The notes: generated from the letters alone by a model not told the origin. A stretch of DNA of 32,000 nt from an uncultured Phycisphaeraceae bacterium (GCA_964574815.1 CAZNPL010000003.1:100861-132860), one strand, 5' to 3'. Shown: positions 18 to 23,744, counted from the stretch's first letter. Program-made: numbers and translations.

Positions 18-2075
18 ATGTCACGGAAAACGCAGACGCGCGGCAAGTCGCCTGACGCACCTGTCCGCAAGCAAGCGGACGCAGAAACAGGTCAGCCGGT
101 CCCCAATCGGATCGAGCTCCGTTGCCTGCCGGGCAACATCTCGCTGGTGGCGCTGGCCGCCGAAAGTGAGGGCGAATCGATCCCGCGCTTCACGATGATC
201 GCCTACACCGGCGAGGCCATGCGCATCGAGGGCTGGCGGTTCCCCGTCGTGGTCGACCTCGACGGTCTGTCGATTCCGTCGCAGCGCAGGCCGGTTCGGT
301 TCGGCCACAGCATGTACGCCGGCGTGGGGCATACGGAACGAATCGCCGTCGAAGCGGGCCGGTTGATCGCCGAGGGCATCGTTTCCCGCGACACCGCTGC
401 GGCCCGCGAGGTCGTCGCCAGCGGGAAGCGCGGCTTCCCGTGGCAGGCGTCGATCGGCGCCCAGGTCGCGCAGGCCGAATTCGTGCGGAACGGAAAGAAC
501 ATCACGGTCAACGGCAGGACGTTCGACGGTCCGCTCTATGTTGCCCGCCGGACGGTGCTGGGCGAGATCAGTTTCGTCGACCTCGGAGCAGACACGAACA
601 CCACCGCGACCATCGCGGCGCAACAGCAGGAGAACGTACTCATGGACGACACGAACGACACGCAGGTCACGCAGACCGAAATCACGGATTCGCCGCCGGA
701 ACCGGCGCGCGAGACGCAGGCGGACGGGAATGGCACGGAGGCCCGCCCGCCCGTCAACCCGGTGGGTGAACTGCGCGCGCAGGCCTTGGCCGAAACGAAG
801 CGCATCGGCGCCATCCGGCGCATCTGCGCGGGCAAATTCTCGGAGATCGAGGAGAAGGCCATCGCCGAGGGCTGGACCGAGGAAAAGTGCGAGCTGGAGA
901 AGCTGCGGGCCTCGCGCCCCAAGGCGCCGGCCATCCACGCCGTGGAGAACGCGATGGGCGGCCAGGTCCTCGAAGCGGCGTGCATGCTCACGGGCAAGTC
1001 GGCCAAGGTCGAGGAGCTCTTTGACGAAAAGACCCTCGAAGCGGCTTCGAAGCGCTTTCGAGGCGGCATCGGATTGCAGGAGCTTCTGCTCGAAGCCGCA
1101 TGGGCCAACGGCTACACCGGCCGCAATTTCCGCGACAGCCGATCGGTGCTGCGCTTCGCCTTCGGCCAGAACCTTCAGGCGGCGTTCTCGACCATCGACA
1201 TCGGCGGCATCCTCTCAAACGTGGCGAATAAGTTCCTGGTGGAAGGCTTCTTTAGCGTCGAGCGGACCTGGCGGAACATCACCAGCGTCCGCAACGTCAG
1301 CGACTTCAAGACCGTCACGAGTTACCGGCTAGTCGGCAAGGACCAGTACGAGAAAGTCGCCCCCGGCGGCGAACTTAAGCACGGCACGCTGGGCGAGCTG
1401 GCGTACACCAACAAGGCCGACACGTACGGCCTGCTGCTGTCCATCGACCGTCGGGACATCATCAACGATGACCTGGGGGCGATCACGACCGTGCCGCGCA
1501 AGCTCGGTCGCGGATCGGGCTTGAAGATCAACGACGTGTTCTGGTCCACGTTTATGAACAACGCGGCGTTCTTCGCCGCGGGCAACAACAACTACCTGAC
1601 CGGCGCGGATACGACGCTGAGCATCGACGGCCTGACCAAGGCTGAGGTTGCGTTCCTGAACCAGACGGACCCGGACGGCAAGCCCATCGGCATCATGCCG
1701 CAGGTCATCTTGGTCCCCACGGCGCTCAGCGCGATGGGCACGATGCTGTTCAAGTCGCTGGAGATCCGCGACACGACGGCCTCGACCAAGTTCCCCGTGG
1801 CCAACCCGCACGCCGGCAAGTTCCGCGTCGAGGTCAGCCGGTATCTCTCCAACACGCAATACACCGGCTTCTCCGACAAGGCGTGGTATCTGCTGGCCGA
1901 TCCGACCGACCTGCCGGTCATCGAGGTCGCGTTCCTCAACGGGCAGGAGTCGCCCACGATCGAAACCGCCGAGGCCGACTTCCACGTGCTGGGCGTGCAG
2001 ATGCGCGGCTACCACGACTTCGGCGTCGCGCTTCAAGAGCCGCGCGGTGGGATCAAGAGCAAGGGCGAGGCGTAA
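18..2075 (+). CDS. Prohead protease / scaffold-like linker / major capsid protein fusion
   Basis: 685-aa ORF with ATG preceded by GGAGGA. The N-terminal third looks like an HK97-type prohead serine protease (RFGHSMYAGVGHTERI..., GFPWQASIGAQV). The middle is charged and helical (AETKRIGAIRRICAGKFSEIEEKAIAEG). The C-terminal ~400 aa resembles Mu gpT/HK97-fold capsid proteins. The call rests on motif memory. Confidence 0.7.
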   Translation: MSRKTQTRGKSPDAPVRKQADAETGQPVPNRIELRCLPGNISLVALAAESEGESIPRFTMIAYTGEAMRIEGWRFPVVVDLDGLSIPSQRRPVRFGHSMYAGVGHTERIAVEAGRLIAEGIVSRDTAAAREVVASGKRGFPWQASIGAQVAQAEFVRNGKNITVNGRTFDGPLYVARRTVLGEISFVDLGADTNTTATIAAQQQENVLMDDTNDTQVTQTEITDSPPEPARETQADGNGTEARPPVNPVGELRAQALAETKRIGAIRRICAGKFSEIEEKAIAEGWTEEKCELEKLRASRPKAPAIHAVENAMGGQVLEAACMLTGKSAKVEELFDEKTLEAASKRFRGGIGLQELLLEAAWANGYTGRNFRDSRSVLRFAFGQNLQAAFSTIDIGGILSNVANKFLVEGFFSVERTWRNITSVRNVSDFKTVTSYRLVGKDQYEKVAPGGELKHGTLGELAYTNKADTYGLLLSIDRRDIINDDLGAITTVPRKLGRGSGLKINDVFWSTFMNNAAFFAAGNNNYLTGADTTLSIDGLTKAEVAFLNQTDPDGKPIGIMPQVILVPTALSAMGTMLFKSLEIRDTTASTKFPVANPHAGKFRVEVSRYLSNTQYTGFSDKAWYLLADPTDLPVIEVAFLNGQESPTIETAEADFHVLGVQMRGYHDFGVALQEPRGGIKSKGEA

Positions 2076-10548: not shown

Positions 10549-11745
10549 ATGTTCGACACGATCCACGAACCCGACGTGATGACGCACATGCCATTCCTGA
10601 CCCGCCTGCCTGCGCCCGGGGACGGGCAGGCAGGCGACGGTCAGGGCAAGCGGGTGTTGTTCTACTGCCGATCCGGCCCGGAGGACTTCGACGCGCCCAC
10701 GCAGTCACGGCGATGGAAGCTGTGGGTCGTGGTCGAGGCCGATCAACCCCGACGACTCGAAACCGGCCTCAGCAACGACCTTGCCGAGTGCGCGCCGACC
10801 GCCTGGCACGATGCCACCGGCTGGCACGTGACCTTCATCGCCGGCGGCGCTCCGGACAACCGGCTGTACCACCTCTACCGCATGGATGGCCCGGACCTCG
10901 ACCGGCTGAGCCAGCCCGTGGCCATCCAGGCCACCCGCGCAGGCTTCGTGCTCGGCGACCGTCTCGTGTACGCCGACCCAGAAAACCTGATCTACGTCCG
11001 CCAGCCGTCGGGCGATTTCGACATCGAACTACCAGGCGCGTTCATCTACCGCGTGTCCTACCGCGCCGACGCGGCCGACAAGCTCCTGATCAGCGGCCAA
11101 TGGCAAACCGAGAGCGATGTCTTCGCCATCGAGTACGACCTGATCACCGGCGAGCAGCACCTGCTCGAATCCGACGGCCTGCCGGCCTACAAGTGCACCA
11201 TCCTCGACGACCAGGTCCTCTACGCCCAACGCATCGGCGTCGGCGAACACTTCGAAAACCGTCGGATCACCGCCTCTACCGCGCTGTCCCGCCGCCCCGT
11301 CAACACCATCGTCCGCCGCCAACCCGGCCAGGTCCAACCGATCGTCACGCAACCGACTGGCGACTGCGGCTGCCGTGGCCTCTCGGCAGCGACCGGCGCT
11401 CCTGCCGCACCGACAAGCATGCCCGCGCCGGATTCGCCCGATCCCAGCAGCGCCTCTTCCGAAGCGAGCCCCGAGCCTGTCCCCGTCACCCGCGCATCCT
11501 GCGCGCAATGTATCGAAAAGCACCTCGGGGCCGCCTACGTCCTGCTCACCGAAACGCGAGAAGGCTACGCCCACCGCCTGCGCGCCATCGGCCACCTGCA
11601 CGAAGCCGAGGACGAATCGCAGGAATTCGGTAACCTCCACACCGCCATCCGCGCCGCCCGCAAGGCCTTCCAAACCGACGGCACGATGCCCGACTGGGAA
11701 GCCCTCGCCCAAGCCACAGAAGTGGCTCGTCAGTCCGTACATTGA
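10549..11745 (+). CDS. Two-domain hypothetical protein (beta-rich N-domain, Pro/Ser/Ala linker, helical CxxC C-domain); last gene of the phage module
   Basis: 398 aa with GAGGAGAGG upstream. The C-terminal segment CAQCIEKHLGAAYVLLTETREGYAHRLRAIGHLHEAEDE looks like a module I recall seeing in small phage proteins of unknown function. Confidence 0.5.
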   Translation: MFDTIHEPDVMTHMPFLTRLPAPGDGQAGDGQGKRVLFYCRSGPEDFDAPTQSRRWKLWVVVEADQPRRLETGLSNDLAECAPTAWHDATGWHVTFIAGGAPDNRLYHLYRMDGPDLDRLSQPVAIQATRAGFVLGDRLVYADPENLIYVRQPSGDFDIELPGAFIYRVSYRADAADKLLISGQWQTESDVFAIEYDLITGEQHLLESDGLPAYKCTILDDQVLYAQRIGVGEHFENRRITASTALSRRPVNTIVRRQPGQVQPIVTQPTGDCGCRGLSAATGAPAAPTSMPAPDSPDPSSASSEASPEPVPVTRASCAQCIEKHLGAAYVLLTETREGYAHRLRAIGHLHEAEDESQEFGNLHTAIRAARKAFQTDGTMPDWEALAQATEVARQSVH

Positions 11746-11758
11746 CTCCGCGGCGTCG

Positions 11759-12199
11759 TCACTTCGCGCTCCCGGTTTCCAGGAACGCAGCAACGACGTC
11801 GCGTATTCTGTCACGGATTTGTCGGAACACGGCAAGTCTCTGTTCGTCCGATCCTTCAGTCATCGCCGGATCGGTGAACGGCCAGTGGAGCAGCCGCCTG
11901 GCTCCGGGGAAAACTGGGCAGGACTCCTTGGCGCTCTCGCACACCGTGACCACCAGGTCGAACGGACGGTTGCCAACCTCATCGATTCCGTTGCTTTGAT
12001 GCGCCGAGATGTCGATGCTGATTTCGTTCATCACCTTTATGGCCATGGGGTGGACGTAACCGGCCGGCCTTGAACCGGCCGAAAGCACTTCCCAATCGCC
12101 GCCACCGAGGGCCCGCCACAGTCCCTCTGCCATCTGCGACCGACAAGAGTTCCCCGTACAGAGGATCAATGCGCGCTGTCTATCTGATTCGCTGCCCAT
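11759..12199 (-). CDS. arsC: Arsenate reductase, LMW-PTPase (thioredoxin-coupled) type
   Basis: Contains LILCTGNSCRSQMAEG (the CX5R P-loop) and a downstream ...VTVCESAKESCPVFPG... Cys pair. The ORF track starts at TTG 12229; ATG 12199 (MGSESDRQRALILC...) is preferred. Confidence 0.85.
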   Translation of the reverse strand: MGSESDRQRALILCTGNSCRSQMAEGLWRALGGGDWEVLSAGSRPAGYVHPMAIKVMNEISIDISAHQSNGIDEVGNRPFDLVVTVCESAKESCPVFPGARRLLHWPFTDPAMTEGSDEQRLAVFRQIRDRIRDVVAAFLETGSAK

Positions 12200-12248
12200 T
12201 CGTGCGGCCCCAATACGACCACTTTGCAACTATGGTGCGACGCCCCGG

Positions 12249-12503
12249 TCACAAATGAGCAACGGCTGATTCCAGTGCCAGCCTGGCCATTCCCAACTTG
12301 AGGCAGTCCTCGAATTCCGGGCACCGAACGCAATCGTCCTACGCCTTCGCATCGAGACCGGTGCGCCGCGCTCCACGATACATTCCGCCCGCGGTGCGGA
12401 GCTCATACCAGAATACCTTTCCGCGCACCGGCTGGTCGATCGCATGGTCCAGGATTTCGGGCATCATTGCTCCGTAACAGGCTGAATGTTCCTTATCAGC
12501 CAT
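12249..12503 (-). pseudogene. Small Cys-containing protein ORF interrupted by an in-frame TAG (54 codons, TAG, 29 codons)
   Basis: ATG 12503 has AAGGGA 5 nt upstream. Translation stops at TAG 12339-12341 but continues in the same frame as DDCVRCPEFEDCLKLGMARLALESAVAHL up to TGA 12249-12251. I verified this by hand translation. Confidence 0.45.
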
Positions 12504-12551
12504 GGGTTTCCCTTCACAAGATGCACTCATTCGGATGGCCCGCGCCAATCT

Positions 12552-13283
12552 TCATTGCGTCGCGCCCTGCGATATCGATTCTCTGCAAAACGCTCCGTTG
12601 CCTCCCGGAGTCACGACCCCCTCGTCTGACGGAATACGTCCCGCCTCGAGCTTCAGTGTTCGCTTCGCGCGGGCAGCCGCGCGGGGGTCATGGGTGACCA
12701 TCACGATCGTGCGGCCTTCGCGGTTCATGTCTCCGAGTAGATCGAGGATATGCCGACCCGTTTCCGGGTCGAGATTGCCCGTGGGCTCGTCGGCGAGGAT
12801 GATCTCCGGATCGTTGGCCAAAACTCGTGCAAGGGCCACGCGCTGCTGTTGACCGATGCTCAATTCCGATGGCTTGTGGTCAAGCCGGTCGCCGAGTCCG
12901 ACGCGCTCCAGAAGCTCCGCTGCACGTTCCTTCTGCTCCGCCGAATCCAAGCCTGCTAGGAACAGCGGGATCTGCACGTTCTCCAGCGCCGTCAGGTATG
13001 GCACCAAATTGAACGTCTGGAACACAAACCCGATCTTCTGCCGACGGAGACCAGCGCGCTGGTTCGGCGCCAGGTCATAGAGCGAGTGCCCATTGAGGAA
13101 AACCTTGCCTGCCGAAGGGGTGAGCATTCCGCCCAGAACCAGGAGCAGGGTGCTTTTCCCGCTGCCGCTGGGCCCGGTGACCGAGACGAAATCGCCGGTC
13201 TCGATCTCCAGCGATGCATTATCCAGGGCGGCGATGGTTCGCCCCCGGTGCGAGTAACTCTTGCTGACGGATTCAAGTCGCAT
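12552..13283 (-). CDS. ABC transporter ATP-binding protein (MacB/LolD/FtsE-like)
   Basis: Walker A is GPSGSGKST, the signature is LSIGQQQRVALARVL and Walker B is ILADEPTGNLD. FVFQTFNLVPYLTALENV is typical of the MacB/LolD subgroup. Confidence 0.9.
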   Translation of the reverse strand: MRLESVSKSYSHRGRTIAALDNASLEIETGDFVSVTGPSGSGKSTLLLVLGGMLTPSAGKVFLNGHSLYDLAPNQRAGLRRQKIGFVFQTFNLVPYLTALENVQIPLFLAGLDSAEQKERAAELLERVGLGDRLDHKPSELSIGQQQRVALARVLANDPEIILADEPTGNLDPETGRHILDLLGDMNREGRTIVMVTHDPRAAARAKRTLKLEAGRIPSDEGVVTPGGNGAFCRESISQGATQ

Positions 13284-13289
13284 CGTGCT

Positions 13290-14513
13290 TCAAACCTCCT
13301 GTAAGGTGGCACAAGGGTCCAGCCGCGCGGCCCGCCGCGCCGGGAAATAGCTTGCCGCCAGCGCAATCACCACCGAGATACCCAGCGCCCAGACGAAGAG
13401 AACTGGCATGGGCAACACGGGGACACCCGCCAAGCGCGGGCCGAGGCCAACCGCGAGCACCGTGCCCAACAGGTAGCCGCAAATACCGCCGGCGAGGCCC
13501 AGGAGAAGGGCTTTCAGAAGGAACATATTCAGGATCAAGGATGTTCCGGCTCCGAGGGCCATTAGCGTCCCGATCTCCCGCCGCCGCTCGAAAACATTCG
13601 CGTACATGTAGTTGGCGATGCTCGCCCCGCCCACCAGCACGATGATGCCGACGAAGACCAGCGACAACCGGGCCATCATGCGGTTGGTGGTCACCTGCGT
13701 ATCGACGACCTGCGTCACCGTAACGACCTTGGCCTCGGGCAACAGTTTGTTGACCTTCTGCACCAGCCCGCCGGCGATTGCCTTGCAGCAGCCGACAATT
13801 TCGATCGCATTGATCACCGGACCCTTGCCCGCTAGCTCCTGAACCGTGTGCAGGTGCGCGAAGATACGCGAATCATCAACCGTGCCGGTCTCGGGCAGGA
13901 CGGCTGTAATCTCGAACGTTCGGCCGAGCACATCCAGCGCGTCTCCCTCTTTCACGCCGACAATCGACGCGACATCGGCGCCGATGAGCACTTCTTTGTC
14001 ACTCAAATCATCGACGACTCGCTGCCGAACGAGCGTTTCTTTGGCTTCGGGGTGCGTCGCGCCCGGAAGATCGGGTATGGTCCCGCAGCCTTCCGCCGGG
14101 TGGGCAAAAATACCCGCACCGGCCCACATGGCCTTGGCCTGGAACTCGCTCTTGGGGAGGATGCCGGTTAGCGTGAACGAGCGATCGCGCAGCATCACGG
14201 GCACCGACAGCTTGGGCGAGAGGTTGTCCAGCCCCTCCAGGTCGGACATCGCCAGGCGCAGAACGTATTCCTCGGGGAATTCGTCGCTTTGCATGTCGGC
14301 GCTGTAATAGTCCTGAATCGTGACCGACTTGGGAAGGACCAGCACATTGGCGCCGAGTCCGTCTAGCTGCCGGGCAACCGCCTTCTCGGAATAAAACGTA
14401 ATGTTCTTGATGGATACGACAACGGTGATGCCGAGCAGTATGGCCAGAAAGCTTGTAGCCAATTGGTTCTTGCGCTCGAACATCTCCCGCCATACGAGTT
14501 TTCGCAGGTGCAT
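13290..14513 (-). CDS. FtsX/MacB-type ABC permease with a large extracytoplasmic domain
   Basis: 407 aa. One N-terminal TM is followed by a ~245-aa loop and three C-terminal TMs (FERRREIGTLMALGAG... is the FtsX-domain signature). The loop carries C143 (EGCG) and C242-C243 (IVGCCK). Confidence 0.85.
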   Translation of the reverse strand: MHLRKLVWREMFERKNQLATSFLAILLGITVVVSIKNITFYSEKAVARQLDGLGANVLVLPKSVTIQDYYSADMQSDEFPEEYVLRLAMSDLEGLDNLSPKLSVPVMLRDRSFTLTGILPKSEFQAKAMWAGAGIFAHPAEGCGTIPDLPGATHPEAKETLVRQRVVDDLSDKEVLIGADVASIVGVKEGDALDVLGRTFEITAVLPETGTVDDSRIFAHLHTVQELAGKGPVINAIEIVGCCKAIAGGLVQKVNKLLPEAKVVTVTQVVDTQVTTNRMMARLSLVFVGIIVLVGGASIANYMYANVFERRREIGTLMALGAGTSLILNMFLLKALLLGLAGGICGYLLGTVLAVGLGPRLAGVPVLPMPVLFVWALGISVVIALAASYFPARRAARLDPCATLQEV

Positions 14514-14529
14514 ACGGGTCCCTTTCAGT

Positions 14530-15435
14530 TTACGGCTTCTTTACCGCGACGCCTGATGGGGTCTGAGGTTGCGAATTCGCCGGCTTGTTGCCCCCGCACG
14601 TGCTCGTGCCGCCGCCGCAGCAGCCGCCGCCCTTGGGTGGCGTTGCCGCCGCCACGATTGTGTTCTTGTCGGTCGCTCCTACGAACGTGCCCATGACCTT
14701 TCCAGGCGGCGCCAGCAAAACCGTGACCGCCTCCGGGTGGCTCTCACCGAGCCCAAACATCGTCAGGAAATCCACCTCATTCGCATCACTCGGATCAACC
14801 GTGACGACTTCGACGGATCGGGCGTACCGCGGATCCGCCACAAACTCACGTACCCCCTGCAACGCCTGGTCATTGAACTCAGTTTCTGCGTTTTGAACAC
14901 ATAATAGGACATACTTGCGATCCTGAAGCGCTTTCAGGCTCTTTTCGGCGCCCGGGCTGACGAACGCGGCGCGGAGTTGCTGCTCATCGAAGTTCGTGGT
15001 GAAACTCCGAGTGACGGCGCCGCTGGGTCCCATGGCAAGCACAAGCGGCATCGGCGCACGAGACAATCCGTATTTCGCCACCAGCGTCCGCTCCCGGACG
15101 TCCGTGACGTTCACGTCTGCGGAGTCCGCTCGATCTTCTAGGGCTTTCATCCCTGCGTCGAACGCCATGTGTGCAGCCCGTGTGGGCTCGTCATCGGCTC
15201 GATAGAAGAACAGGAAAGTGTACTTGCCGGCCATTGCCGCCCGGTCCATGATTGAGGCGGCGGATTCACTCATGCTATCGCCCGCGTTGCCCGCACCCGG
15301 AATGACGCTGTTCTCGACGGGCGCACCGTCGTTGATTGCGCTGGCGGGTGAATCACTCTGACCCAACGCAATGTTCCCGGAGAAAAGCACCGAAACCATT
15401 GCTACCATCGCTTCTGGGACCCACTTACGAGTCAT
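14530..15435 (-). CDS. Secreted protein with two thioredoxin-fold-like repeats (no CxxC) and a C-terminal CC-x6-C tail
   Basis: ATG 15435 has GGAG upstream and gives MTRKWVPEAMVAMVSVLFSGNIALG/QSD, a signal-peptide-like start. There are two similar units (KYTFLFFYRADDE...PLVLAMGPSGAVT and KYVLLCVQNAETE...VTVLLAPPGKVMGTF). The tail reads GGGCCGGGTSTCGGNK. Confidence 0.6.
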   Translation of the reverse strand: MTRKWVPEAMVAMVSVLFSGNIALGQSDSPASAINDGAPVENSVIPGAGNAGDSMSESAASIMDRAAMAGKYTFLFFYRADDEPTRAAHMAFDAGMKALEDRADSADVNVTDVRERTLVAKYGLSRAPMPLVLAMGPSGAVTRSFTTNFDEQQLRAAFVSPGAEKSLKALQDRKYVLLCVQNAETEFNDQALQGVREFVADPRYARSVEVVTVDPSDANEVDFLTMFGLGESHPEAVTVLLAPPGKVMGTFVGATDKNTIVAAATPPKGGGCCGGGTSTCGGNKPANSQPQTPSGVAVKKP

Positions 15436-15549
15436 CACTGGTTCTCCATGCCACGTACATTCCGCGTTCTTCCTCCAGTCGCTGCGCACCCGTCGTGGCG
15501 TAAGCCGCGCCGACCGGAACATCTTCTCGAATACCGCGCCCCGCGCGGA

Positions 15550-16053
15550 TCACATCCGTTTGTCGTGTGCTGGTTGCCCCTCAATTTCGCGGCGTGTTTT
15601 CCCTTGCGAAGTCGCCCGCGCGAAACCGCGCCCCTTCCCGGTCCGCGTCGCCGTTCCGTTTCGCCCCGCCTTGGCAGCCGGTGACTTTCGATGCCCATTG
15701 CCCGAAACACACTCGCCGCAGCGCCGGTTGCGCCCTTGGAGCGTTTGAAGAGCTTTCAGATCCGCAGCCGTCTGCGGAAAATCCGCCACCGTTTCCGCCA
15801 GCCATTCCACAACGCGCCGGTGCGTGGGCCCGTTCGGCTTCGCCAGGGAGTAGTACATCCACACGCCGTTGCGGCGGTCTTCGACGAGTCCGACGTTTCG
15901 CAAGTGCGCCAGGTGCCGCGAGGCTTTGGACTGCCCGATGTCGAGCACCGTGGTGAGATCGCACACGCACAACTCCCCCCGCGCAAGCAGGTTCAAGATG
16001 CGGAGGCGGGTCTCGTCAGCCAGCGAGCCAAAGAGTCGGGCAATGTTCTGCAT
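15550..16053 (-). CDS. arsR: ArsR/SmtB-family metalloregulator with CVC motif (ArsR1), long basic C-terminal extension
   Basis: The sequence LADETRLRILNLLARGELCVCDLTTVLDIGQSKASRHLAHLRNVGLVEDRRNGVWMYY shows the wHTH fold with an ELCVCDL metalloid-site motif. GGAG lies 7 nt upstream of the ATG. Confidence 0.85.
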   Translation of the reverse strand: MQNIARLFGSLADETRLRILNLLARGELCVCDLTTVLDIGQSKASRHLAHLRNVGLVEDRRNGVWMYYSLAKPNGPTHRRVVEWLAETVADFPQTAADLKALQTLQGRNRRCGECVSGNGHRKSPAAKAGRNGTATRTGKGRGFARATSQGKTRREIEGQPAHDKRM

Positions 16054-16074
16054 GAATAAACTCCGGTACCGTTT

Positions 16075-16128
16075 ATGCGTATATACGCATTAACAAATAT
16101 AATAGCGGCACAACCCTGCCCCTGTCAA
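16075..16128 (-). promoter_or_regulatory. arsR1 promoter (TTGACA-18 nt-TATTAT) with a 16-bp perfect palindrome operator just downstream
   Basis: On the - strand, TTGACA is at 16128-16123 and TATTAT at 16104-16099. The perfect palindrome ATGCGTATATACGCAT is at 16075-16090, 22-37 nt upstream of the arsR1 ATG, in an AT-rich patch. Confidence 0.55.
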
Positions 16129-16325
16129 CCCTGATTTCAGCACTCAGCGTAACGCTGCGGTAACGCCTCTCGCGGCCCCCATGCTGGGCGAAACGCCCCG
16201 GCGTACCGCCCTAATTAACCGTCGTAGCCCGCCGGTATTCTCGGATGGGTGTTGCCACGTCCCTCTCAGACACCTCTTCAAACCATCCGCAGTTTCGTTT
16301 GCAAAACGGCCACGCGGGCTGGGCA

Positions 16326-17198
16326 TCACGAACATTTCGGCGGGACCAGCAAAGTGGGCACGATCGTGCGGCGGGCGACATGGAGAGCGACGCTGCCCAT
16401 GAACAACTCGCCAAAATAGCCGCGGCCTTGGGTGCCCATGACAATCAGCGAGTAATCGCCCTGCTCGGCGCGTTGGACGATCTGCTGCTTCGGCAGGCCG
16501 TACGGCAGCTCAATGCTCACCGCCGCTGCGCCCAGTTTCTTCAGACGATCCTCCATGCGTTCCAGCCGTTCGCGGTCGATACGGTTGAACCCATCGAGTT
16601 TGTCCTTGAGGTCGCCGTAGATGCGGCTCTTGTCCTGAACATGCAGGAGCGTTACGCGCCGACCGCCGCTGCGAACGATATCTTCGACGTAGAGGAATGC
16701 GTGTTCGGCGGTATCGGAAAAGTCGGTAGGAAACAACATGTGATCGTGGAAGTCGGTGCAGATCATTTCGCAGCGGTGCTCGGCCTCTTCGGCGATCCGA
16801 AGTTGCGCGATAAACACAGGCACCTCTGCATGATGGGCCACTTCCTGGGCCACGCTGCCCAGCAGCACCTCGCGGGCCAATGTCGCGCCGTGCGAACCGA
16901 TGACAATCATGGAGGCCTGTTTCTCTTTGGCCACTCGCTGAATCTCCCAGGACGGAATGCCCGGGGCGATGACGATTTCGACGGAGAATCCTTGATTCTC
17001 GAGCGTCTGTTTCTGTTGGCAGAGCTTGGGTTCGACCGACGGCGCGAGTAGGTGCTTCATCTCTTCAAGGTGGCGGATACCCAAGGCATGGGTGAGGATG
17101 ACCCGCTCTGTTCCCATCGGTTTCAGACCGTGCAGACAACTGATGATTCGATCGGACGCGGGGGACAGGTCGGAGGCGACGATGGCGGTTTTGAACAT
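16326..17198 (-). CDS. Universal stress protein, tandem UspA domains
   Basis: 290 aa with two Usp units. Both carry ATP-binding-type motifs (VIGSHGATLAREVLLGSVAQEV and VMGTQGRGYFGELFMGSVALHV). AAGGAGAA lies upstream of the ATG. Confidence 0.85.
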   Translation of the reverse strand: MFKTAIVASDLSPASDRIISCLHGLKPMGTERVILTHALGIRHLEEMKHLLAPSVEPKLCQQKQTLENQGFSVEIVIAPGIPSWEIQRVAKEKQASMIVIGSHGATLAREVLLGSVAQEVAHHAEVPVFIAQLRIAEEAEHRCEMICTDFHDHMLFPTDFSDTAEHAFLYVEDIVRSGGRRVTLLHVQDKSRIYGDLKDKLDGFNRIDRERLERMEDRLKKLGAAAVSIELPYGLPKQQIVQRAEQGDYSLIVMGTQGRGYFGELFMGSVALHVARRTIVPTLLVPPKCS

Positions 17199-17223: not shown

Positions 17224-18420
17224 TTAGCGACGGTGCTCGGCGCCCGAAACCAGTTGCCGCGTGGTATCGCAGGATTCCTGTTCAGCGACGGCGACAGCGA
17301 CGACTGTGGCGGATACATCGCCGTCTGGATGGACTTTGCCTCCATAAAACTTGCGGAGGAAGAACAAACTTACATGCACCAGGCCGATCAGGACCGGCAC
17401 CTCGACCAGCGGGCCGACGACGGTGGCGAAGGCGACCGGAGAGCCGATACCGAAAACCGCGATCGCGACGGCAATCGCCAGTTCGAAGTTGTTGCCCGAT
17501 GCGGTGAACGCCAGCGTCGCGGCGCGGGCATAATCCACGCCGATCTTCCAGGCCATGAAGAAGCTGACCAGGAACATGATGGCGAAATAAGCACTCAACG
17601 GGATTGCGATCCAAAGCACGTCCAGCGGTTGCGCGATGATCCGCTCGCCCTGCGTGGAGAACATCACGACGATCGTGAACAGCAGCGCCGAGAGCGTGAT
17701 CGGGGAAATCTTCGGCACAAATACGCGGTCGTACCAGTCACTGCCCTTGAGCGGCACGAGAATCACGCGGCTGAGAATCCCCGCGGCGAAGGGGATGCCC
17801 AGGTAGATCATCACGCTGACGAAAATCTCGCCGATACTCACCTCGACCACGGATCCCGTTAACCCGAATAGCGGGGGCAACACGGTCACGAAGATCCATG
17901 CATAGAAGCCAAACGTGACGATCTGGAAAATGCTGTTGAGCGCCACCAGCCCGGCGGCGTATTCGCTGCTGCCCCGGGCAAGCTGATTCCACACCAGCAC
18001 CATCGCGATGCAACGAGCGATGCCGACCATAATCAGGCCGGTCATGTACAAACCCCAGCGTTCGTCCGGGCCGAACAACGCCGGGGCGATAAACCCGAAG
18101 AAGACGATCGCCAGCACGAACATTAGCACCGGCCCGACGATCCAATTCTGCATCAGCGACAGGCCCACCACCTTCACGTCCGCGAAGACCTTGGGCATCA
18201 GCTCGTACTTCACCTTCGCCAGCGGCGGGTACATCATCAGGATCAGCCCGACGGCGATGAGCAGGTTCGTATGCTCACCCACGGTCAGCGCGTGGTTGAA
18301 GCGTTCAACGCCCGACTGGAAGAAATAGCCGATCGCCACGCCAACAGCCATGGCCGCGAAGATCCAGACCGTCAGGTAGCGGTCGAGCAGGGACAGTTTC
18401 CTGGTGATTCCTGGTTCCAT
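17224..18420 (-). CDS. acr3: Arsenite efflux permease, ACR3 family
   Basis: The N-terminus [25 protein letters not shown]...[21 protein letters not shown]...[14 protein letters not shown] is characteristic of ACR3. It has ~10 predicted TMs and a ~45-aa C-terminal tail. Confidence 0.9.
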
Positions 18421-18910: not shown

Positions 18911-19936
18911 TCAAGACGTCCTTTCGCAGGCTTCGGTCAGCTCCCTCAGCGATGGGTAGCTACCCTGTTTAATGATCTGACCATTGATTATCGTAATAGG
19001 CAGTTCGCTCGATCCTCGGCCCTCTTTCATGGCGCTCACAACGGTCTTGTTCTCCATGAATTTGTGGGGCTCCTTGTTGGGCACGACGCGATGGACAGCG
19101 ATGACGTTTCCAACCCGGCGCTCTAGGTGGGTGAGGGCTTGGTTAAAACGCATGAGTTCCTCGTACAAATCGGGACCGCACATCCCGCTAACGCAACACA
19201 TGGGCGGCGTAAACACTTCGATGGTCATATCGTAGCTGTCCGGCATTTGTGTCTCCGCGATATTGTGTATCTCGACCTCCGCCTGCCGGTCGGGGCGCGT
19301 CGCTGTTACTTCGCGGTCATCCCGCTTCAACGGAGGGACTCTGACCACGAAATTACTTACAAATCCGGAATCGTATTGCCGGAACTCAAGTTGCAGCCCA
19401 TCGAGAATGGCTGCAATTGCGTCGACGCGGCATGGGTTTTCGTAATGAGACTCGCCGCGTTCGGCGTTCTCGGCTCGTACCGCCAACAGGCCGCGGGAAT
19501 TGAGGTCAGCGATCGCGAGTACCCCCGACGGTCGGCACACGCGCACCATCTCCTCGAGAGCCGCGCGACAGTCCGGCATGTGATGTATCGAGTCGAACGA
19601 GAATACGGCGTCGAACGTCGCGGCAGCGAGCGGCAACCGCAGCGCGTCGGCATGGATGAAATCAACGCGGGCGGCAACATCCGAACCAACGGCCTTCAAT
19701 CGCTGCCGAGCGCGATCAAGCACACCTCGGTCGATATCCACGGTCACGACATTGAAACCGCGCTCGGCCAGGATCATCGCCATCCACCCCGAGCCTGTCC
19801 CGACGTCCAACACGTGTGACCCGGGAATGTCCCCGACCAATCGCACAAGGTCTGATCGGGCACGGACAGTATCGAAGCCGTACCGTTCCTTCAGCGCCTG
19901 CATGCTCGGTGTGACTCGATCCGTTTTCTCGGCCAT
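18911..19936 (-). CDS. Class I SAM-dependent methyltransferase fused in frame to a C-terminal ArsD metallochaperone domain
   Basis: ATG 19936 has GGGAG 7 nt upstream. The SAM motif is HVLDVGTGSGWMAMILAERGFNVVTVDID. No stop codon occurs before the ArsD domain MTIEVFTPPMCCVSGMCGP...INGQIIKQGSYPSLREL (18911-19228). An internal GGAGA-N5-ATG at 19246 could also give a stand-alone ArsD. Confidence 0.7.
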   Translation of the reverse strand: MAEKTDRVTPSMQALKERYGFDTVRARSDLVRLVGDIPGSHVLDVGTGSGWMAMILAERGFNVVTVDIDRGVLDRARQRLKAVGSDVAARVDFIHADALRLPLAAATFDAVFSFDSIHHMPDCRAALEEMVRVCRPSGVLAIADLNSRGLLAVRAENAERGESHYENPCRVDAIAAILDGLQLEFRQYDSGFVSNFVVRVPPLKRDDREVTATRPDRQAEVEIHNIAETQMPDSYDMTIEVFTPPMCCVSGMCGPDLYEELMRFNQALTHLERRVGNVIAVHRVVPNKEPHKFMENKTVVSAMKEGRGSSELPITIINGQIIKQGSYPSLRELTEACERTS

Positions 19937-20004
19937 ATTACGACTCCCGCGAGCGTCCCCTACGCGACGATTTCCGGCAATCTCTTGCACGATTGCTGTG
20001 CCCT

Positions 20005-20226
20005 TCAACCGCTCGTCTCGCGTTGGCCACACAACTCTCTCGACCCACGCGGATCTGCTACCACGGGCCGAGCGCTCTCCGAGGCGCAGTTCGGACATCG
20101 TATCCGATGGTCCTTTCCATACGCTGCCGACCTGGCCATGGAGGCATGGGACTCGAACAACTCGAAGCACTCGTCGCAGAAGTAGCAGTTCACCGATAGG
20201 TGTTTTTCGGTAACGCGCCTTTTCAT
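20005..20226 (-). CDS. Small zinc-ribbon protein (FmdB/CxxC-x(n)-CxxC type)
   Basis: 73 aa; AAAGGAAA lies 5 nt upstream of the ATG. YFCDECFELFE...IRCPNCAS fits the pattern Y-x-C-x2-C-x3-FE...CPxC. Confidence 0.5.
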   Translation of the reverse strand: MKRRVTEKHLSVNCYFCDECFELFESHASMARSAAYGKDHRIRCPNCASESARPVVADPRGSRELCGQRETSG

Positions 20227-20251: not shown

Positions 20252-22033
20252 TCAGACGTTCGCGACCGTCTCGACCGCTGGTTGGGTCAACTCGCGCAGC
20301 CGATCGGGACCGATTGGTTCCTCGATCAGCCAGGGCGAGAGGGCCAAACGCTTCGCATGCCCGTCTCGTACCTTCTGAATCTGCAACTGCTCGGATCTGG
20401 CCCGCGCCACCAACAGCGGATCGCTTGGTCCGGCCGCGGCCAACGACGCATTAATGATCCAGGCCCATGGTTCAATCTTTGCCCGACGCAGGTCTTCCTG
20501 GAGGGCTGCGGCCTCCAGCACGGGTGTCGTCTCCGGCAGCGTGACGATCAGAATCTTGGTCTGCTTCGGATCTTGAAGCCGCATCAAAGGCGTGACGATC
20601 CTGGTCCCCGCTTTGAGGTGTCGCACGATGTCGCGGTGATACGAGCCGGTCGCATCTAACAACAACAGCGTATGGCCGGTCGGCGCCGTATCCATGACAA
20701 CGAACTTCTGTTGCGCTTCGCGGATGATCTTCGAGAATGCCTGGAACACGGCGATTTCTTCGGTGCAGGGCGAGCGCAGGTCTTCTTCCAGGAGTGCCCG
20801 GCCTTGTTCGTCGAGGTCGGCCCCCTTCGTCGCAAGCACATGCCGGCGATAGCGATCGGTCTCAGCTTGCGGGTCAATCCGGCTGATCTCCAGGCGATCA
20901 ACCCGCGATTCGATGGTCGAGGCCACGTGTGCCGCGGGGTCGGTGGTGGTCAGATGCACATCATGTCCGCGCGACGCCAATTCTACCGCCACGGCCGCGG
21001 CGATGGTCGTCTTGCCGACGCCGCCCTTGCCCATGACCATCACCAGCCCATGCCCGTCCGCCTCGATCTCGTCCACGAGCTGGCCAAGCGACGGAACATC
21101 GGTCGACGGCAGTGGCGTCTGTGGTTCAGATGCGTCTACCGCGAAACCCGTCGGCTGCAACAACCGGCGCAGCGCCGCAACTCCGACGAGGTTTCCCGGT
21201 TGCAGAAACACACGGTCGGTCTGTAAGTCGTTGAGCCGCTCCGGCAAAGATTCCATTGCCTGTCGATCGCGTTGCTGCATGGCGTAAGCGAGCGGATCAT
21301 CGCTTGAGACTTGCGGCATCAGGCCGTTGATGATCAACCGTTGATTCTTGACGCCCAGCGCCGCCAGTTCCGCGCTGGTGCGCGCCGCCTCGTTCAATGC
21401 CGCCGTCTGTGGGCGACCGACCAGGATCAACGTCGTACGCGAGGGTTCGGCCAGCGCATCGACCGCGGCTTTGTACTGCTGCCGCTGCTTTTCCAAGCCC
21501 GCCAGGGGGCCGAGACAGGATGCGCCATTCTGGTTGCTATCCAGGAAGCTCGACCAGGCGCTTGGCAGCCTCAGCAGACGCAGCGTATGGCCGGTCGGCG
21601 CGGTGTCGAAAATAACGTGGTCGAATCCGGCGGTCTTCCGTTCATCCGCCAACAGCGCGGTGAACTCATCGAACGCCGCAATCTCCGTCGTGCATGCCCC
21701 GGAAAGCTGTTCCTCCATGCTGCGGACGGCCTTCTCCGGCAGTGCGCCGCGCACCGGTCCAACGATACGGTCACGATAGCTCTGCGCAGCGGACTCCGGG
21801 TCGATGTTCAAAGCCCAGAGATTGGGCACGGCCGGGATCGGCGTGGGCGCATGTTCACCGATGTCAATCTCGAAGACATGCGCGAGATTGGACGCGGGGT
21901 CGGTGCTCACCAGGAGCACGCGCTTGCCCTCGTCGGCCAGCTGCACCGCCGTTGCACAAGCCAGGGACGTCTTGCCCACCCCGCCCTTGCCGGTGAAAAA
22001 CAAGTATCGCGTAGACTGATCATACCAGGTCAT
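20252..22033 (-). CDS. arsA: Arsenite-stimulated ATPase ArsA (two homologous halves)
   Basis: Two P-loops (FTGKGGVGKTS and MGKGGVGKTT) and two DTAPTGHTL signal motifs are present. The Cys contexts SGACTTEIAAFDEF, GASCLGP and RSPCTEEIAVFQAF match the metalloid-binding Cys of plasmid R773 ArsA. Start 22033 (MTWYDQSTRYLFFTG) is preferred over 22042 or 22114. Confidence 0.9.
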   Translation of the reverse strand: MTWYDQSTRYLFFTGKGGVGKTSLACATAVQLADEGKRVLLVSTDPASNLAHVFEIDIGEHAPTPIPAVPNLWALNIDPESAAQSYRDRIVGPVRGALPEKAVRSMEEQLSGACTTEIAAFDEFTALLADERKTAGFDHVIFDTAPTGHTLRLLRLPSAWSSFLDSNQNGASCLGPLAGLEKQRQQYKAAVDALAEPSRTTLILVGRPQTAALNEAARTSAELAALGVKNQRLIINGLMPQVSSDDPLAYAMQQRDRQAMESLPERLNDLQTDRVFLQPGNLVGVAALRRLLQPTGFAVDASEPQTPLPSTDVPSLGQLVDEIEADGHGLVMVMGKGGVGKTTIAAAVAVELASRGHDVHLTTTDPAAHVASTIESRVDRLEISRIDPQAETDRYRRHVLATKGADLDEQGRALLEEDLRSPCTEEIAVFQAFSKIIREAQQKFVVMDTAPTGHTLLLLDATGSYHRDIVRHLKAGTRIVTPLMRLQDPKQTKILIVTLPETTPVLEAAALQEDLRRAKIEPWAWIINASLAAAGPSDPLLVARARSEQLQIQKVRDGHAKRLALSPWLIEEPIGPDRLRELTQPAVETVANV

Positions 22034-22088
22034 CGCAACCATTCCTTTCCAAGTCGTCGTCCATCCGTTCCCATTCGCCACTCGCGCC

Positions 22089-22703
22089 TCAGCAGCAACC
22101 GCCGCTGTCGCCACAACAGCCGCCTTGCGGAGCGGCCTCCGGCATCAGGTGCTTCTGTGCAAGTCGGATCACGTTGTTGGTCGCCTGCTCCGATACCCGC
22201 AGGGCCACGTTGACGGCCTGAATCATGTCCTCGCTGGCGATGCCGAGTTCGACCGCCCTCCGGTGGTGATACCGAAAGCACGGCTCGCAATGAGCGGCGA
22301 CTGCCGCGCCCAGTGCGATCAGCTCGGCAACGCGCTCATCGTAGATCGGTGCCTGCTCGACCCGCGCAGCCTGCTGATCGGTTGCAGTCGAGTCTCTCCC
22401 ATTCAAACCGGCCAGTTCTGACAAACGCTCACGAGATGGGTATTCACCGTGACTGACCACGCTGCCGTCGATGACGACCACGGGCAGACCATCTCCATCG
22501 TTCTCGTCCAACACTCGCTTGACTTGCGGGTTTTGAGCGAAAGCGGCGGGCTCTTGCGCCAGGTTGAAACGTCGGACCTTCACTCCGCGGTCTTCAATCC
22601 ACTTGAGATCGGCGGTGAAGCGGGCCAGCCGCGGATCCGGCTCGGGACCACACACGCCGGTCGTACAGCACATGGGCGGATCGAAAACTTCAATACTGGT
22701 CAT
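22089..22703 (-). CDS. arsD: ArsD metallochaperone fused to a carboxymuconolactone decarboxylase/AhpD-like domain and a Cys-rich tail
   Basis: MTSIEVFDPPMCCTTGVCGP places Cys at positions 12, 13 and 18, as in ArsD. The C-terminal half ALGAAVAAHCEPCFRYHHRRAVELGIASEDM is a CMD/AhpD-type CxxC core. The tail reads GGCCGDSGGCC. AGGAAGGAAA lies upstream of the ATG. Confidence 0.85.
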   Translation of the reverse strand: MTSIEVFDPPMCCTTGVCGPEPDPRLARFTADLKWIEDRGVKVRRFNLAQEPAAFAQNPQVKRVLDENDGDGLPVVVIDGSVVSHGEYPSRERLSELAGLNGRDSTATDQQAARVEQAPIYDERVAELIALGAAVAAHCEPCFRYHHRRAVELGIASEDMIQAVNVALRVSEQATNNVIRLAQKHLMPEAAPQGGCCGDSGGCC

Positions 22704-22821
22704 CGTAAGTTTCCTTCCTGTTCAGGGTTGCCCGCGGGCTCATACACCCGTTGCTTTATCCCCGTGGTGTCCTCGTTCACTTCCACGTTCGCACCTGTCG
22801 ACCGACGCAGCCGGCGGCGGA

Positions 22822-23184
22822 CTAGCATCGATAACATGCGCATAACTCCTTGGGGTCCTGCTTGCGAATCTGTGCCAGGCTCTGATCGTCCGAGACCACG
22901 CGCGGCTCGCCGTCCAACGACTCCAGAACCCAGCGCAGCGCCCGCTTGGCGACGGGCGGAGTATCCTTTCCCGCCAGGCGGAAATAGTGCCAGCGGCCTT
23001 CCTTCCGGCGCTCGACCAGCCCCGCCGTCAGCAGCAGGTCGAGATGCTTGGAAACCGTGGAAGGCGCCAGCCCGAGCAACTCGACGACCTGACAGAGGCA
23101 CAGTTCGCCGTCTCGCAGGGCAAGCAGCGCCCGCACCCGCGTCTCGTCGCTGAGCGCCTTTGTGATCGTCAGGAATTCCCGCAT
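22822..23184 (-). CDS. arsR: ArsR/SmtB-family metalloregulator (ArsR2), CLC motif
   Basis: LSDETRVRALLALRDGELCLCQVVELLGLAPSTVSKHLDLLLTAGLVERRKEGRWHYF is the wHTH region; the C-terminus carries CACYRC. ATG 23184 (GGAG 6 nt upstream) is preferred over 23196. Confidence 0.85.
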   Translation of the reverse strand: MREFLTITKALSDETRVRALLALRDGELCLCQVVELLGLAPSTVSKHLDLLLTAGLVERRKEGRWHYFRLAGKDTPPVAKRALRWVLESLDGEPRVVSDDQSLAQIRKQDPKELCACYRC

Positions 23185-23198
23185 GGTTGGCTCCATTC

Positions 23199-23244
23199 AC
23201 TTCGTCATCCAACGAAGTATACGACAACTTCGTCACTTCGTCAA
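23199..23244 (-). promoter_or_regulatory. arsR2 promoter (TTGACG-17 nt-TATACT) with ACTTCGT/ACGAAGT operator repeats
   Basis: On the - strand, TTGACG is at 23244-23239 and TATACT at 23221-23216. The inverted repeat is ACTTCGT (23199-23205), N6, ACGAAGT (23212-23218). Two tandem ACTTCGTC copies (23227-23242) lie inside the spacer. Confidence 0.55.
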
Positions 23245-23337
23245 GAAACGAAATAGCCTTCGGTGATCTCCTAGCATTTTCCGTGCCAACCGTCACCAAC
23301 CTACCAAACTTCTGTGCTCACGATCCTGTTATGGCAC

Positions 23338-23411: not shown

Positions 23412-23744
23412 TCACAGGATTCTGAAAACGAACACGAGCGAGAAGTAAACACCTACGGCGATGAAGATGAACCCTGTCGCTGTCCGCGCCCAGCGTTCGA
23501 AGGTGGCCACCTGTTGGAACGCTCGGGCCACGACTCCCGCCCCGGCAGCGATGGCCAGCGCGAACAAGAGAACCGGCAGCGCCGTTCCCAACCCAGAGGC
23601 CAATGGGAGCAAGAAGCGAGACTCAAACTTGATCGAAATCGGCACCAGGCTGCCGAAGAACAGCGCCGCCGACGCGGGACAGAATGCGAGGGCGAACTCC
23701 CGCCGTTTCCAGGACGCGGCGGGCGCAATGGTCTTCGCAACCAT
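23412..23744 (-). CDS. Half-length CcdA/DsbD-superfamily-like membrane protein (3 TM); possibly a 5'-truncated remnant
   Basis: FALAFCPASAALFFGSLVPISI...LPLASGLGTALPVLLFALAIAAG...FERWARTATGFIFIAVGVYFSLVFVF resembles the C-terminal half of ~230-aa permeases of this superfamily. The start is uncertain (GTG 23768, ATG 23744 or GTG 23645) and the ORF overlaps the DGC ORF. Confidence 0.4.
   Translation of the reverse strand: MVAKTIAPAASWKRREFALAFCPASAALFFGSLVPISIKFESRFLLPLASGLGTALPVLLFALAIAAGAGVVARAFQQVATFERWARTATGFIFIAVGVYFSLVFVFRIL

Follow-up and report, generated by a model that had tools for sequence, protein, structure and literature searches.

A putative ArsR-controlled type VII ABC module with an exported, cysteine-tailed partner in arsenic islands of Planctomycetota

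The 32,000-nucleotide stretch of DNA considered here (GCA_964574815.1, CAZNPL010000003.1:100861-132860; henceforth referred to as ‘the window’) derives from an uncultured Phycisphaeraceae bacterium and carries an operon that runs from arsR1 to arsC and encodes, between these two genes, an exported protein with a cysteine-rich tail (henceforth ‘TrxTail’), a MacB/FtsX-type permease and an ATP-binding cassette (ABC) ATPase. These three genes form a module that recurs in fixed order, and mostly together with an ArsR gene, in homologous loci, and that likely serves in defence against arsenic or antimony, or a closely related thiophilic metalloid. Our favoured reading, for which we consider the case evenly poised, is more specific: the module would be an ArsR-repressed type VII ABC machine with a dedicated periplasmic partner that acts on thiol-bound As(III) or Sb(III). 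This reading draws on two sets of three cysteines, one in the tail of TrxTail and one in the extracytoplasmic part of the permease; the As(III) sites of ArsR, ArsD, ArsA and ArsM are characteristically built from three thiolates, two of which often form a vicinal pair.

Results

Organization of the operon

All genes of the operon lie on the minus strand, in the order promoter/operator, arsR1, TrxTail, permease, ATPase, small open reading frame (ORF) and arsC, with 16 nt separating the TrxTail and permease genes and 6 nt separating the permease and ATPase genes. The features are as follows (positions in the window; aa, amino acids):

16099-16128, minus strand: sigma-70-type promoter of the arsR1 operon, TTGACA-18-TATTAT
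16071-16094: putative ArsR1 operator, a 24-bp inverted repeat composed of GTTTATGCGTAT and ATACGCATTAAC
15550-16053, minus strand: arsR1, ArsR/SmtB repressor, 167 aa (PF01022, HTH_5, E 2.5e-18)
14530-15435, minus strand: TrxTail, exported 301-aa protein, start MTRKW
13290-14513, minus strand: MacB/FtsX-type (type VII ABC) permease, 407 aa, four transmembrane (TM) helices
12552-13283, minus strand: ABC ATPase of the LolD/MacB/FtsE type, 243 aa (PF00005, E 2.9e-35)
12249-12503, minus strand: small ORF, member of an 84-aa four-cysteine family, with an in-frame TAG at 12339-12341
11759-12199 (alternative end 12229), minus strand: arsC, thioredoxin-coupled arsenate reductase of the low-molecular-weight protein tyrosine phosphatase type (PF01451, E 5.6e-20)
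10549-11745, plus strand: convergent ORF beyond arsC

Because the gene that follows it is convergent, the operon ends at arsC. Every gene that a first-pass annotation of this DNA had listed for the operon is present on the minus strand, with the qualification that the small cysteine gene is interrupted by a nonsense codon. The interval given there for the operon including arsC, 12249-16128, leaves arsC itself outside; its upper coordinate, 16128, is the start of the -35 box.

TrxTail is a predicted exported protein with a conserved cysteine tail

TrxTail has 798 database relatives at E ≤1e-3, none of them functionally named, and those with a named source organism come from Planctomycetota. The 301-aa start was preferred over the 292-aa call of the public record since many homologues open with M-x-RKW, and the gene call of an independent assembly is 301 aa as well. 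Residues 1 to ~25 have the features of a signal peptide, namely a positive N-terminus, a hydrophobic core and a cleavage site between the Gly and Gln of A-L-G-Q. A lipobox-like motif replaces this ordinary signal in 14 of the best 120 homologues, which are predicted to reach the same compartment as TrxTail. Both features bear out the earlier proposal that the 301-aa protein is secreted.

An AlphaFold2 (AF2) model of TrxTail, built from a 38-sequence alignment, has a mean predicted local distance difference test (pLDDT) score of 82.5, and residues 57-265, which score above 90, make up two thioredoxin folds, each a beta-alpha-beta...beta-beta-alpha unit; disorder is predicted for the linker at the N-terminus and for the final ~35 residues. 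The top Foldseek matches were Eps1p, the Pyrococcus protein disulfide oxidoreductase (PDO; PfPDO), QSOX, the N-terminal domain of AhpF and the b-b' domains of protein disulfide isomerase (PDI), and thioredoxin itself was also matched with a probability of 1.0. Neither domain has a CxxC or CxxS motif at helix 1 (the corresponding segments are FYRADDEPT in domain 1 and VQNAETEF in domain 2), and the sole cysteine of the protein body, C179, lies in the strand before the helix. Since CxxC is missing, TrxTail has a thioredoxin-like fold but is not a classical thiol-disulfide oxidoreductase, and its domains are predicted to be redox-inactive PDI-b-like modules, the kind used for partner binding. The two thioredoxin-fold-like repeats without CxxC that had been read from the sequence at first pass are thus recovered by AF2 and Foldseek alike. 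Comparison with Pfam yielded only a sub-threshold AhpC-TSA match, comparison with NCBIfam release 20 yielded nothing, and no sequence relative of TrxTail was found in the PDB below E 0.39.

The tail of TrxTail (PPKGGGCCGGGTSTCGGNKPANSQPQTPSGVAVKKP, PPKGGGCCGGGTSTCGG...) is rich in Gly, Pro and Lys and contains Cys272, Cys273 and Cys280 in a CC-x6-C arrangement. This arrangement had been noted correctly before, but the protein does not end there, as had been stated: it continues for 19 residues beyond the GG. Tail statistics were drawn from the best 120 of the 798 relatives. At least three tail cysteines are present in 119 of these 120 homologues, exactly three in 94 and a vicinal CC in 91, and the average tail consists of 21% Gly, 19% Pro, 13% Cys and 13% Lys, with Cys making up about 1% of the body. 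The motif itself drifts (GGCCGGGSSTCG, GCDPKSGCC, GCGPGGCGPGGCG), and what stays is the number of cysteines and their flexible context.

About a third of the modules surveyed below carry two tandem TrxTail paralogues (L018, L020-L025, L028, L031, L032, L034, L035, L038 and L043 among them), and the cysteine tail is present in both copies. The first copy often has a lipobox and is a predicted lipoprotein, and the second has an ordinary signal peptide, which suggests a membrane-anchored and a soluble protein working as a pair. Separately, orphan TrxTail paralogues in Pirellulaceae (L036, 9965-10804; L037; L041) have a five-cysteine tail, GCGSCGPGGCGSCGPSGC, and stand without adjacent FtsX/ABC, ArsR or ars genes.

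The permease carries three invariant cysteines outside the cytoplasmic membrane

The permease matches the FtsX domain (PF02687) with E 1.1e-17 and 64.6 bits (cut-off 25.5) and, over residues 20-228, the MacB periplasmic core domain (PF12704, MacB_PCD) with 29.3 bits (cut-off 27). Its TM region (residues 274-404) aligns to the MacB structures 5NIK and 5LIL with E 3e-17, and the periplasmic domain (~residues 54-266) is too divergent to align with them. In an AF2 model of low confidence, stalk helices formed by residues 15-53 and 267-319 enclose a mixed alpha/beta domain. The partner ATPase has intact Walker A (GPSGSGKST), signature (LSIGQ), Walker B (ILADEP) and H-loop (VTHD) motifs, and its top NCBIfam matches, LolD, YbbA, MacB and FtsE, all remain under the equivalog cut-offs (for LolD, 233 against 308). 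Assignment of the permease as an equivalog of a named NCBIfam system was tried and rejected, with 75 vs 966 bits for MacB, 43 vs 362 for LolCE, 21 vs 255 for FtsX and 21 vs 290 for DevC. By the fold features predicted from their sequences, the permease and ATPase together belong to the type VII ABC superfamily.

The first-pass annotation had pointed to a vicinal pair in IVGCCK and to an EGCG motif in the extracytoplasmic domain of the permease, and both are present, as C242-C243 and C143, respectively. The segment enclosed by the stalk helices holds all three cysteines, which are hence outside the cytoplasmic membrane. C143 is kept in 43/43 module loci, and C242-C243 in all 42 full-length copies, the 43rd being truncated by the end of its contig; the surrounding motifs are F-x-(R/K)-x(1-3)-GC-(G/K) and IE-(I/V)-x-GCC-x-(E/A/D/Q)-(I/V). 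The cysteines are retained even in copies with an overall identity of only 51%. Identity is 72-87% among the best 120 relatives of the permease, against 40-67% for TrxTail.

The module recurs next to ArsR and arsenic resistance genes

We scanned one genome per GTDB species and found 46 loci. Removal of duplicates and addition of the window gave 43 module loci, and three further loci hold the orphan TrxTail paralogues. The source bins belong to Phycisphaerae, Pirellulales, Planctomycetales and Thermoguttaceae, two are labelled Syntrophaceae and Desulfomonile, and a Desulfomonilaceae copy of the module was found separately. The module and its linkage to ArsR and ars genes extend across Planctomycetota and into a few Desulfobacterota bins. 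The order TrxTail (one or two copies)-permease-ATPase is fixed in 43/43 loci. An ArsR gene on the same strand accompanies the module in 38/43 loci and lies ≤2.6 kb from the permease gene in 36. Where this ArsR is encoded upstream (23 loci) it mostly has ELCVC(D/E/Q) and a C-terminal Cys pair, and where it is encoded downstream (15 loci) it mostly has ELCVGD and a C-terminal GGCC(P); we take these two motif classes to be the two described types of As(III) site, those of R773 ArsR and of Acidithiobacillus ArsR (AfArsR).

At least one of Acr3, ArsC, ArsM, ArsA and ArsD is encoded ≤3.3 kb from the permease gene in 24/43 loci, with Acr3 in 21, ArsM in 10, ArsC in 8, ArsA in 3 and ArsD in 2. Further recurrent neighbours are ArsP/DUF318-like (8), CcdA/ArsG-like (7), ArsF-like (5-6) and DUF2703 (5-8) proteins. 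Clustering of neighbour ORFs was noisy owing to spurious high-GC ORFs and was used to choose representatives, which were then checked against NCBIfam. The 21 Acr3 genes fall within 643 kb of flanking DNA surveyed, a density that we take to be about two orders of magnitude above the 1-3 copies per multi-megabase genome, this background being estimated and not computed. DUF2703 is an ars-linked family that is induced by arsenic in Rhodococcus (PMC6514093). Overall, chance would not place the module beside ArsR and ars genes nearly as often as observed, and it follows from this linkage that the homologous operons are not regularly tied to non-metal functions. Three points on which the first-pass annotation had staked its proposal and which can be addressed by computation, namely export of the protein, conservation of its tail and linkage to metal-related genes, all came out in its favour.

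MFP-like genes (MFP, membrane fusion protein) occur near 3/43 modules and OMF-like genes (OMF, outer-membrane factor) near 1/43. These counts led us to reject both as conserved partners of the module, and they lend no comparative support to the earlier suggestion that the module uses the MFP and OMF of the neighbouring resistance-nodulation-division (RND) operon. As had been noted, MFP and OMF genes are missing from the arsR1 operon and present in that RND operon, about 11 kb away, from which the module might still borrow them.

Two types of locus depart from the common arrangement. In one (L056, 6148-15230), which lacks an ArsR gene, the trio is followed directly, in the same orientation, by genes for an OMF, a small YHS-like protein whose tail is rich in His and Asp, a CusB-like MFP with heavy-metal-binding domains and an RND pump. 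In some Phycisphaerales (L001, 5937-14580, and L008), an expanded and putatively ArsR-controlled cluster comprises ArsR, a DUF1573 protein, a DUF1573-like protein of 263 aa, TrxTail, its paralogue, FtsX, ABC, a lipoprotein of the DUF2703 family and a membrane protein of 599 aa; canonical ars genes are missing for 8 kb around it.

A promoter and palindrome precede arsR1

The promoter of the operon has a -35 box TTGACA (16128-16123), an 18-nt spacer and a -10 box TATTAT (16104-16099), in agreement with the consensus at 11/12 positions. No other promoter-like site was found in 11600-16400, but shuffled sequences also give about one, such that the count alone is not significant. The putative operator adjoins the -10 box, extends to 18 nt before the arsR1 ATG and has a perfect 16-bp palindrome, ATGCGTATATACGCAT, as its core. 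No other inverted repeat of ≥12 nt is present in 15400-16330 (the 930-nt regulatory and arsR1 region), and the operator is unique within the window at ≤4 mismatches. In at least 15 homologous loci the -10 box is likewise followed at this position by a related palindrome (ATCCGAATATACGGAT, ATTCGAATATACGAAT and ATTCGTATATTCGCAT are examples), and a TTGAC...-10 promoter with a palindrome ahead of the ArsR gene is common to these loci. This arrangement is that of a classic autoregulated ArsR operon in which ArsR1 would bind the palindrome, and control of the operon by ArsR, as first proposed, is well in line with it. Rfam was searched for riboswitches and other RNA elements, and the operon has no match at gathering thresholds.

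ArsR1 scores 95.7 bits against NF033788 (cut-off 55), which confirms the winged-helix HTH_5 domain. Its helix alpha3 reads ELCVCD(LT) and has two of the three R773-type As(III) cysteines, and the C-terminus contains CGEC.

arsC and an interrupted small gene close the operon

The arsC product has the motif CTGNSCRS and a downstream Cys pair and matches TIGR02691 with E 2.2e-41 and 141 bits, under the cut-off of 174. Between the ATPase gene and arsC, the 54-aa stretch ahead of the in-frame TAG of the small ORF retrieves a family of ~84-aa proteins with the pattern CYG-x-MFP...GKVF...AGG...W-D-x-C-x-x-C-x-E-F-x-x-C. Members of this family align across the TAG with 41-48% identity, and the TAG coincides with a conserved Trp, which fits a TGG to TAG change. 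The identical base is found in an independently built assembly of a sequencing run, so the TAG does not stem from an error of a single assembler. The small gene is thus probably a pseudogene or yields a truncated 54-aa product.

The idea that the small ORF is a sixth conserved component was considered and rejected, because no copy was found in 49 other loci by tblastn and hidden Markov model searches and because of its in-frame stop; the family is missing from the other 42 module loci. An intact small gene is present in Gemmataceae (L051-L054) in the order ArsR-Acr3-[84 aa]-ArsC-ArsM. The small gene is, on this evidence, a candidate new ars gene, that is, a separate and as yet unnamed ars-operon gene outside the ABC module.

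The surrounding arsenic island

The operon belongs to an arsenic island that takes up the right two-thirds of the window and is encoded on the minus strand throughout. Its remaining features, together with ArsR3 and a phage-related ORF at the left end of the window, are:

30218-30547: ArsR3, containing VKVCCLAGFWDC
29907-23946, minus strand: OMF, MFP and RND genes
23415-23696, minus strand: CcdA/ArsG-like permease remnant, C-terminal 94 residues only
22089-22703, minus strand: ArsD::CMD (ArsD with a CMD/AhpD-like domain), C-terminal end QGGCCGDSGGCC
20252-22114, minus strand: ArsA
18911-20170, minus strand: S-adenosylmethionine (SAM)-methyltransferase::ArsD fusion with a C-terminal ArsD domain (also called ArsM::ArsD)
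17224-18420, minus strand: Acr3
16326-17198, minus strand: tandem universal stress protein (Usp)
18-2075, plus strand: ORF of 685 aa, phage capsid domain (PF25209, E 3e-43)

The cysteine segments reported earlier from elsewhere in the window are found where they had been placed, QGGCCGDSGGCC in ArsD::CMD and VKVCCLAGFWDC in ArsR3. The island includes two unusual ArsD fusions, methyltransferase::ArsD and ArsD::CMD. The CcdA/ArsG-like remnant is 55% identical to the copy in another module locus (L038), has lost ~140 N-terminal residues and lies directly against the 3' end of the RND gene, which suggests a rearrangement of, or an insertion into, the island. An ORF at 22700-23299 (orf199) was considered as a second arsC or arsR and dismissed, as it has no similarity to either and is probably a spurious high-GC ORF. 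The large ORFs that follow the capsid ORF, up to about 10.5 kb, have no Pfam match; prophage or other mobile DNA may flank the island. A reading of the module as anti-phage defence, prompted by the capsid gene, was set aside, since PADLOC yielded generic ABC and AAA matches only.

Discussion

A proposed mechanism

Our favoured reading, that of an ArsR-repressed type VII ABC machine working with a periplasmic partner on thiol-bound metalloid, would operate as follows. Periplasmic As(III), Sb(III) or a trivalent organoarsenical, for example after efflux by Acr3, would be chelated by the three-cysteine tail of TrxTail, the thioredoxin-like domains of which would dock on the periplasmic domain of the permease. 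The metalloid would then swap between the tail and Cys143/Cys242/Cys243 of the permease by thiol ligand exchange, much as between ArsD and ArsA, and the ATPase cycle, relayed mechanically through the permease, would load, strip or release it outside the cytoplasmic membrane. No substrate would cross the inner membrane in this scheme, and the final sink could be release to the medium, transfer to another exporter or sequestration. Observed are the set of parts, the export signals, the predicted fold, the conservation, the arrangement of the regulatory region and the linkage to ars genes, from which we infer the binding of the metalloid, its hand-off, the transport step with its direction, and the sink. 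Taken further, the module could be an undescribed class of As/Sb resistance, in which detoxification is ATP-driven and extracytoplasmic and As(III) passes between two three-cysteine sites; we consider this stronger claim possible but somewhat doubtful.

Relation to known systems

All characterised type VII ABC systems use cytoplasmic ATP hydrolysis to drive work in the periplasm through a dedicated partner, examples of which are MacA-TolC, LolA, EnvC and TesA (PMC12646458, PMC5985334). With MacAB-TolC the module shares the four-TM FtsX fold, a MacB-like core between TM1 and TM2, an ATPase of the MacB/LolD type and the expected mechanotransmission on a periplasmic substrate. Unlike in MacAB-TolC, the ATPase is a polypeptide of its own, the operon lacks MFP and OMF genes, the place of MacA is taken by a secreted thioredoxin-fold partner, and the permease has a periplasmic Cys triad that is missing from E. 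coli MacB at the aligned positions. Given how rarely MFP and OMF genes accompany the module, a tripartite pump like MacAB-TolC is not supported. LolCDE-LolA, FtsEX-EnvC and YbbAP-TesA resemble the module in combining a permease and an ATPase with one co-encoded periplasmic protein for which docking is presumed here; unlike in these systems, the partner has a tandem thioredoxin-like fold, and the module is under putative ArsR control and located in ars islands.

The proposed exchange resembles that between ArsD and ArsA, in that three thiolates including a vicinal pair would pass their ligand to a three-Cys site on an ATP-driven machine, and GGCC-type motifs recur in the tail of the window's ArsD::CMD and in module-linked ArsRs. 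ArsD and ArsA differ from the module in being cytoplasmic and feeding ArsB or Acr3, whereas the Cys triads of the module are extracytoplasmic, and neither Pfam nor NCBIfam reveals sequence homology of TrxTail, permease or ATPase to ArsD or ArsA. A further parallel is CusF-CusCBA, where a small exported metal binder is encoded beside an envelope efflux machine; TrxTail is likewise a small exported candidate metal binder, and in L056 the trio is located upstream of Cus-like OMF-MFP-RND genes. However, CusF is an oligonucleotide/oligosaccharide-binding (OB)-fold protein that binds Cu(I) through Met, His and Trp and serves an RND pump, whereas TrxTail is Cys-based, paired with an ABC system and mostly ars-linked. 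By fold, TrxTail is closest to PDI b-b' and archaeal PDO, which also have two consecutive thioredoxin folds (Foldseek E ~1e-6, probability 1.0; the low global TM-scores of 0.25-0.32 reflect a different orientation of the domains), but it lacks CxxC, and its Cys-rich disordered tail has no counterpart in these proteins.

Weighing the alternatives

Several observations weigh against the favoured reading of a machine for thiol-bound As(III)/Sb(III). ArsR1 has only two of the three R773-type cysteines, and the signals to which ArsR/SmtB proteins respond include Zn, Cd, Pb, Cu and sulfur species. AF2 modelled the permease poorly (mean pLDDT 61, dropping under 50 at both Cys motifs), and the model is compatible both with one site formed by the three cysteines and with a structural disulfide. 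In 19/43 loci no canonical ars gene is present in the retrieved DNA, many of the contigs being short, and the heavy-metal efflux genes downstream of the trio in L056 point to a wider soft-metal range. As no outer-membrane exit is encoded with the module, there is also no obvious route for the ‘expulsion’ of a metalloid.

Some of these observations would be expected if the module were a general soft-metal chaperone or efflux accessory (for Cu(I)/Ag(I), Cd(II), Zn(II) or Hg(II)) that is located with ars genes because metal islands cluster, its Cys-rich tail acting like a small periplasmic metallothionein or a CusF-like chaperone. This would suit the gene order of L056, where the CusB-like MFP bears an HMBD domain, the RND or MFP genes near the module in the window and in L040, L046 and L047, and the breadth of metals sensed by ArsR/SmtB proteins, ArsR1 itself having sub-cut-off NCBIfam matches to CmtR and BigR. 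We nevertheless consider it rather unlikely, as ars-specific neighbours are found in 24/43 loci against RND genes near 3/43, the associated regulators bear Cys motifs of the As(III) type and not the N-terminal cysteines found in CadC-type sensors, and both partners keep exactly three cysteines, where two are usual for Cu and Hg and four for Zn and Cd. Less probable still, in our estimation, is a substrate that partitions into the membrane, such as methylarsenite (MAs(III)) formed by ArsM or thioarsenites in sulfidic habitats; the permease would pull it out of the outer leaflet, much like HrtBA acting on haem or YbbAP-TesA on hydrophobic compounds, and then transfer it to the partner. Extraction of membrane-embedded substrates is typical of type VII ABC systems (PMC12646458, PMC9271180), most of the source metagenome-assembled genomes (MAGs) originate from anoxic sediments, fens and reactors, the window encodes an ArsM::ArsD fusion, and genes for ArsM (10-15 modules), ArsP/DUF318-like (8), ArsF-like (5-6) and ArsG/CcdA-like (7) proteins are found near the module. 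Yet the commonest neighbour is Acr3 (21/43), an exporter of inorganic As(III), and MAs(III) needs two thiols where both proteins keep three.

The module might also transport nothing, ATP hydrolysis serving only to switch the periplasmic partner as in FtsEX-EnvC, with thiol-based protection or repair of envelope proteins under arsenic stress, or a BceAB-like ‘target protection’ that strips As(III) from damaged periplasmic thiols, as possible outcomes. FtsEX-like type VII systems are known not to transport (PMC7668044, PMC11627006), and a role of this kind would agree with the absence of a conserved MFP, OMF or other exit route, with the likeness of the partner domains to the redox-inactive, client-binding b-b' domains of PDI, and with a permease that is far more conserved than its partner, as would be expected of a motor with a co-evolving effector. 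That the module includes no enzyme domain and that the three conserved permease cysteines suggest direct contact with the ligand make this explanation, in our judgement, as improbable as the organoarsenical one. The least probable explanation, and one to which we give very little credence, is that there is no link to arsenic at all, the module being a housekeeping envelope system of Planctomycetota with an incidental neighbourhood and with cysteines that form structural disulfides. The loci without a canonical ars gene and the orphan TrxTail paralogues without ABC or ars neighbours (L036, L037 and L041) would be in keeping with such a system. It would leave unexplained the adjacency of ArsR in 38/43 loci with a conserved operator position, the 21 Acr3 genes in the flanking DNA, the placement of the module outside the Lol, FtsX and Dev equivalogs of NCBIfam, and the retention in 119/120 homologues of three cysteines that have no structural use in a disordered tail. 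On balance, we favour the reading in which an ArsR-repressed type VII ABC machine and its periplasmic partner act on thiol-bound As(III)/Sb(III).

Implications

Described mechanisms of arsenic resistance comprise reduction, methylation and efflux (by ArsB, Acr3, ArsP, ArsK or ArsJ), in which ArsD acts as the chaperone and ArsA as the motor, and to our knowledge all those described in bacteria operate in the cytoplasm or across the inner membrane. None of the named ars families in NCBIfam release 20 matches TrxTail, the permease or the ATPase, the latter two having generic ABC/FtsX matches only. Full-text literature searches returned no account of a TrxTail-FtsX-ABC system, and the lone mention of FtsX in an arsenic paper concerns an unrelated up-regulated gene pair in Xanthomonas. 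As a mechanism of arsenic resistance the TrxTail-FtsX-ABC system would be new, the ABC superfamily to which it belongs being itself known. The module is widespread (~800 homologues of the partner, and permeases of 72-87% identity in many MAGs) and wholly unannotated, and giving it a name would improve surveys of arsenic genes in sediments, fens, aquifers and bioreactors. The hypothesis reduces to a few cysteines in two proteins and is hence directly testable. If it is true, a metalloid would join the substrates of the mechanotransmission (MacB/FtsX, type VII) ABC systems, and TrxTail would be a new kind of partner for them. More broadly, some diderm bacteria would then handle arsenite even after its exit from the cytoplasm, which would give the arsenic defence of bacteria a further, periplasmic tier and may be of special relevance to Planctomycetota, the enlarged periplasm of which houses much of their metabolism.

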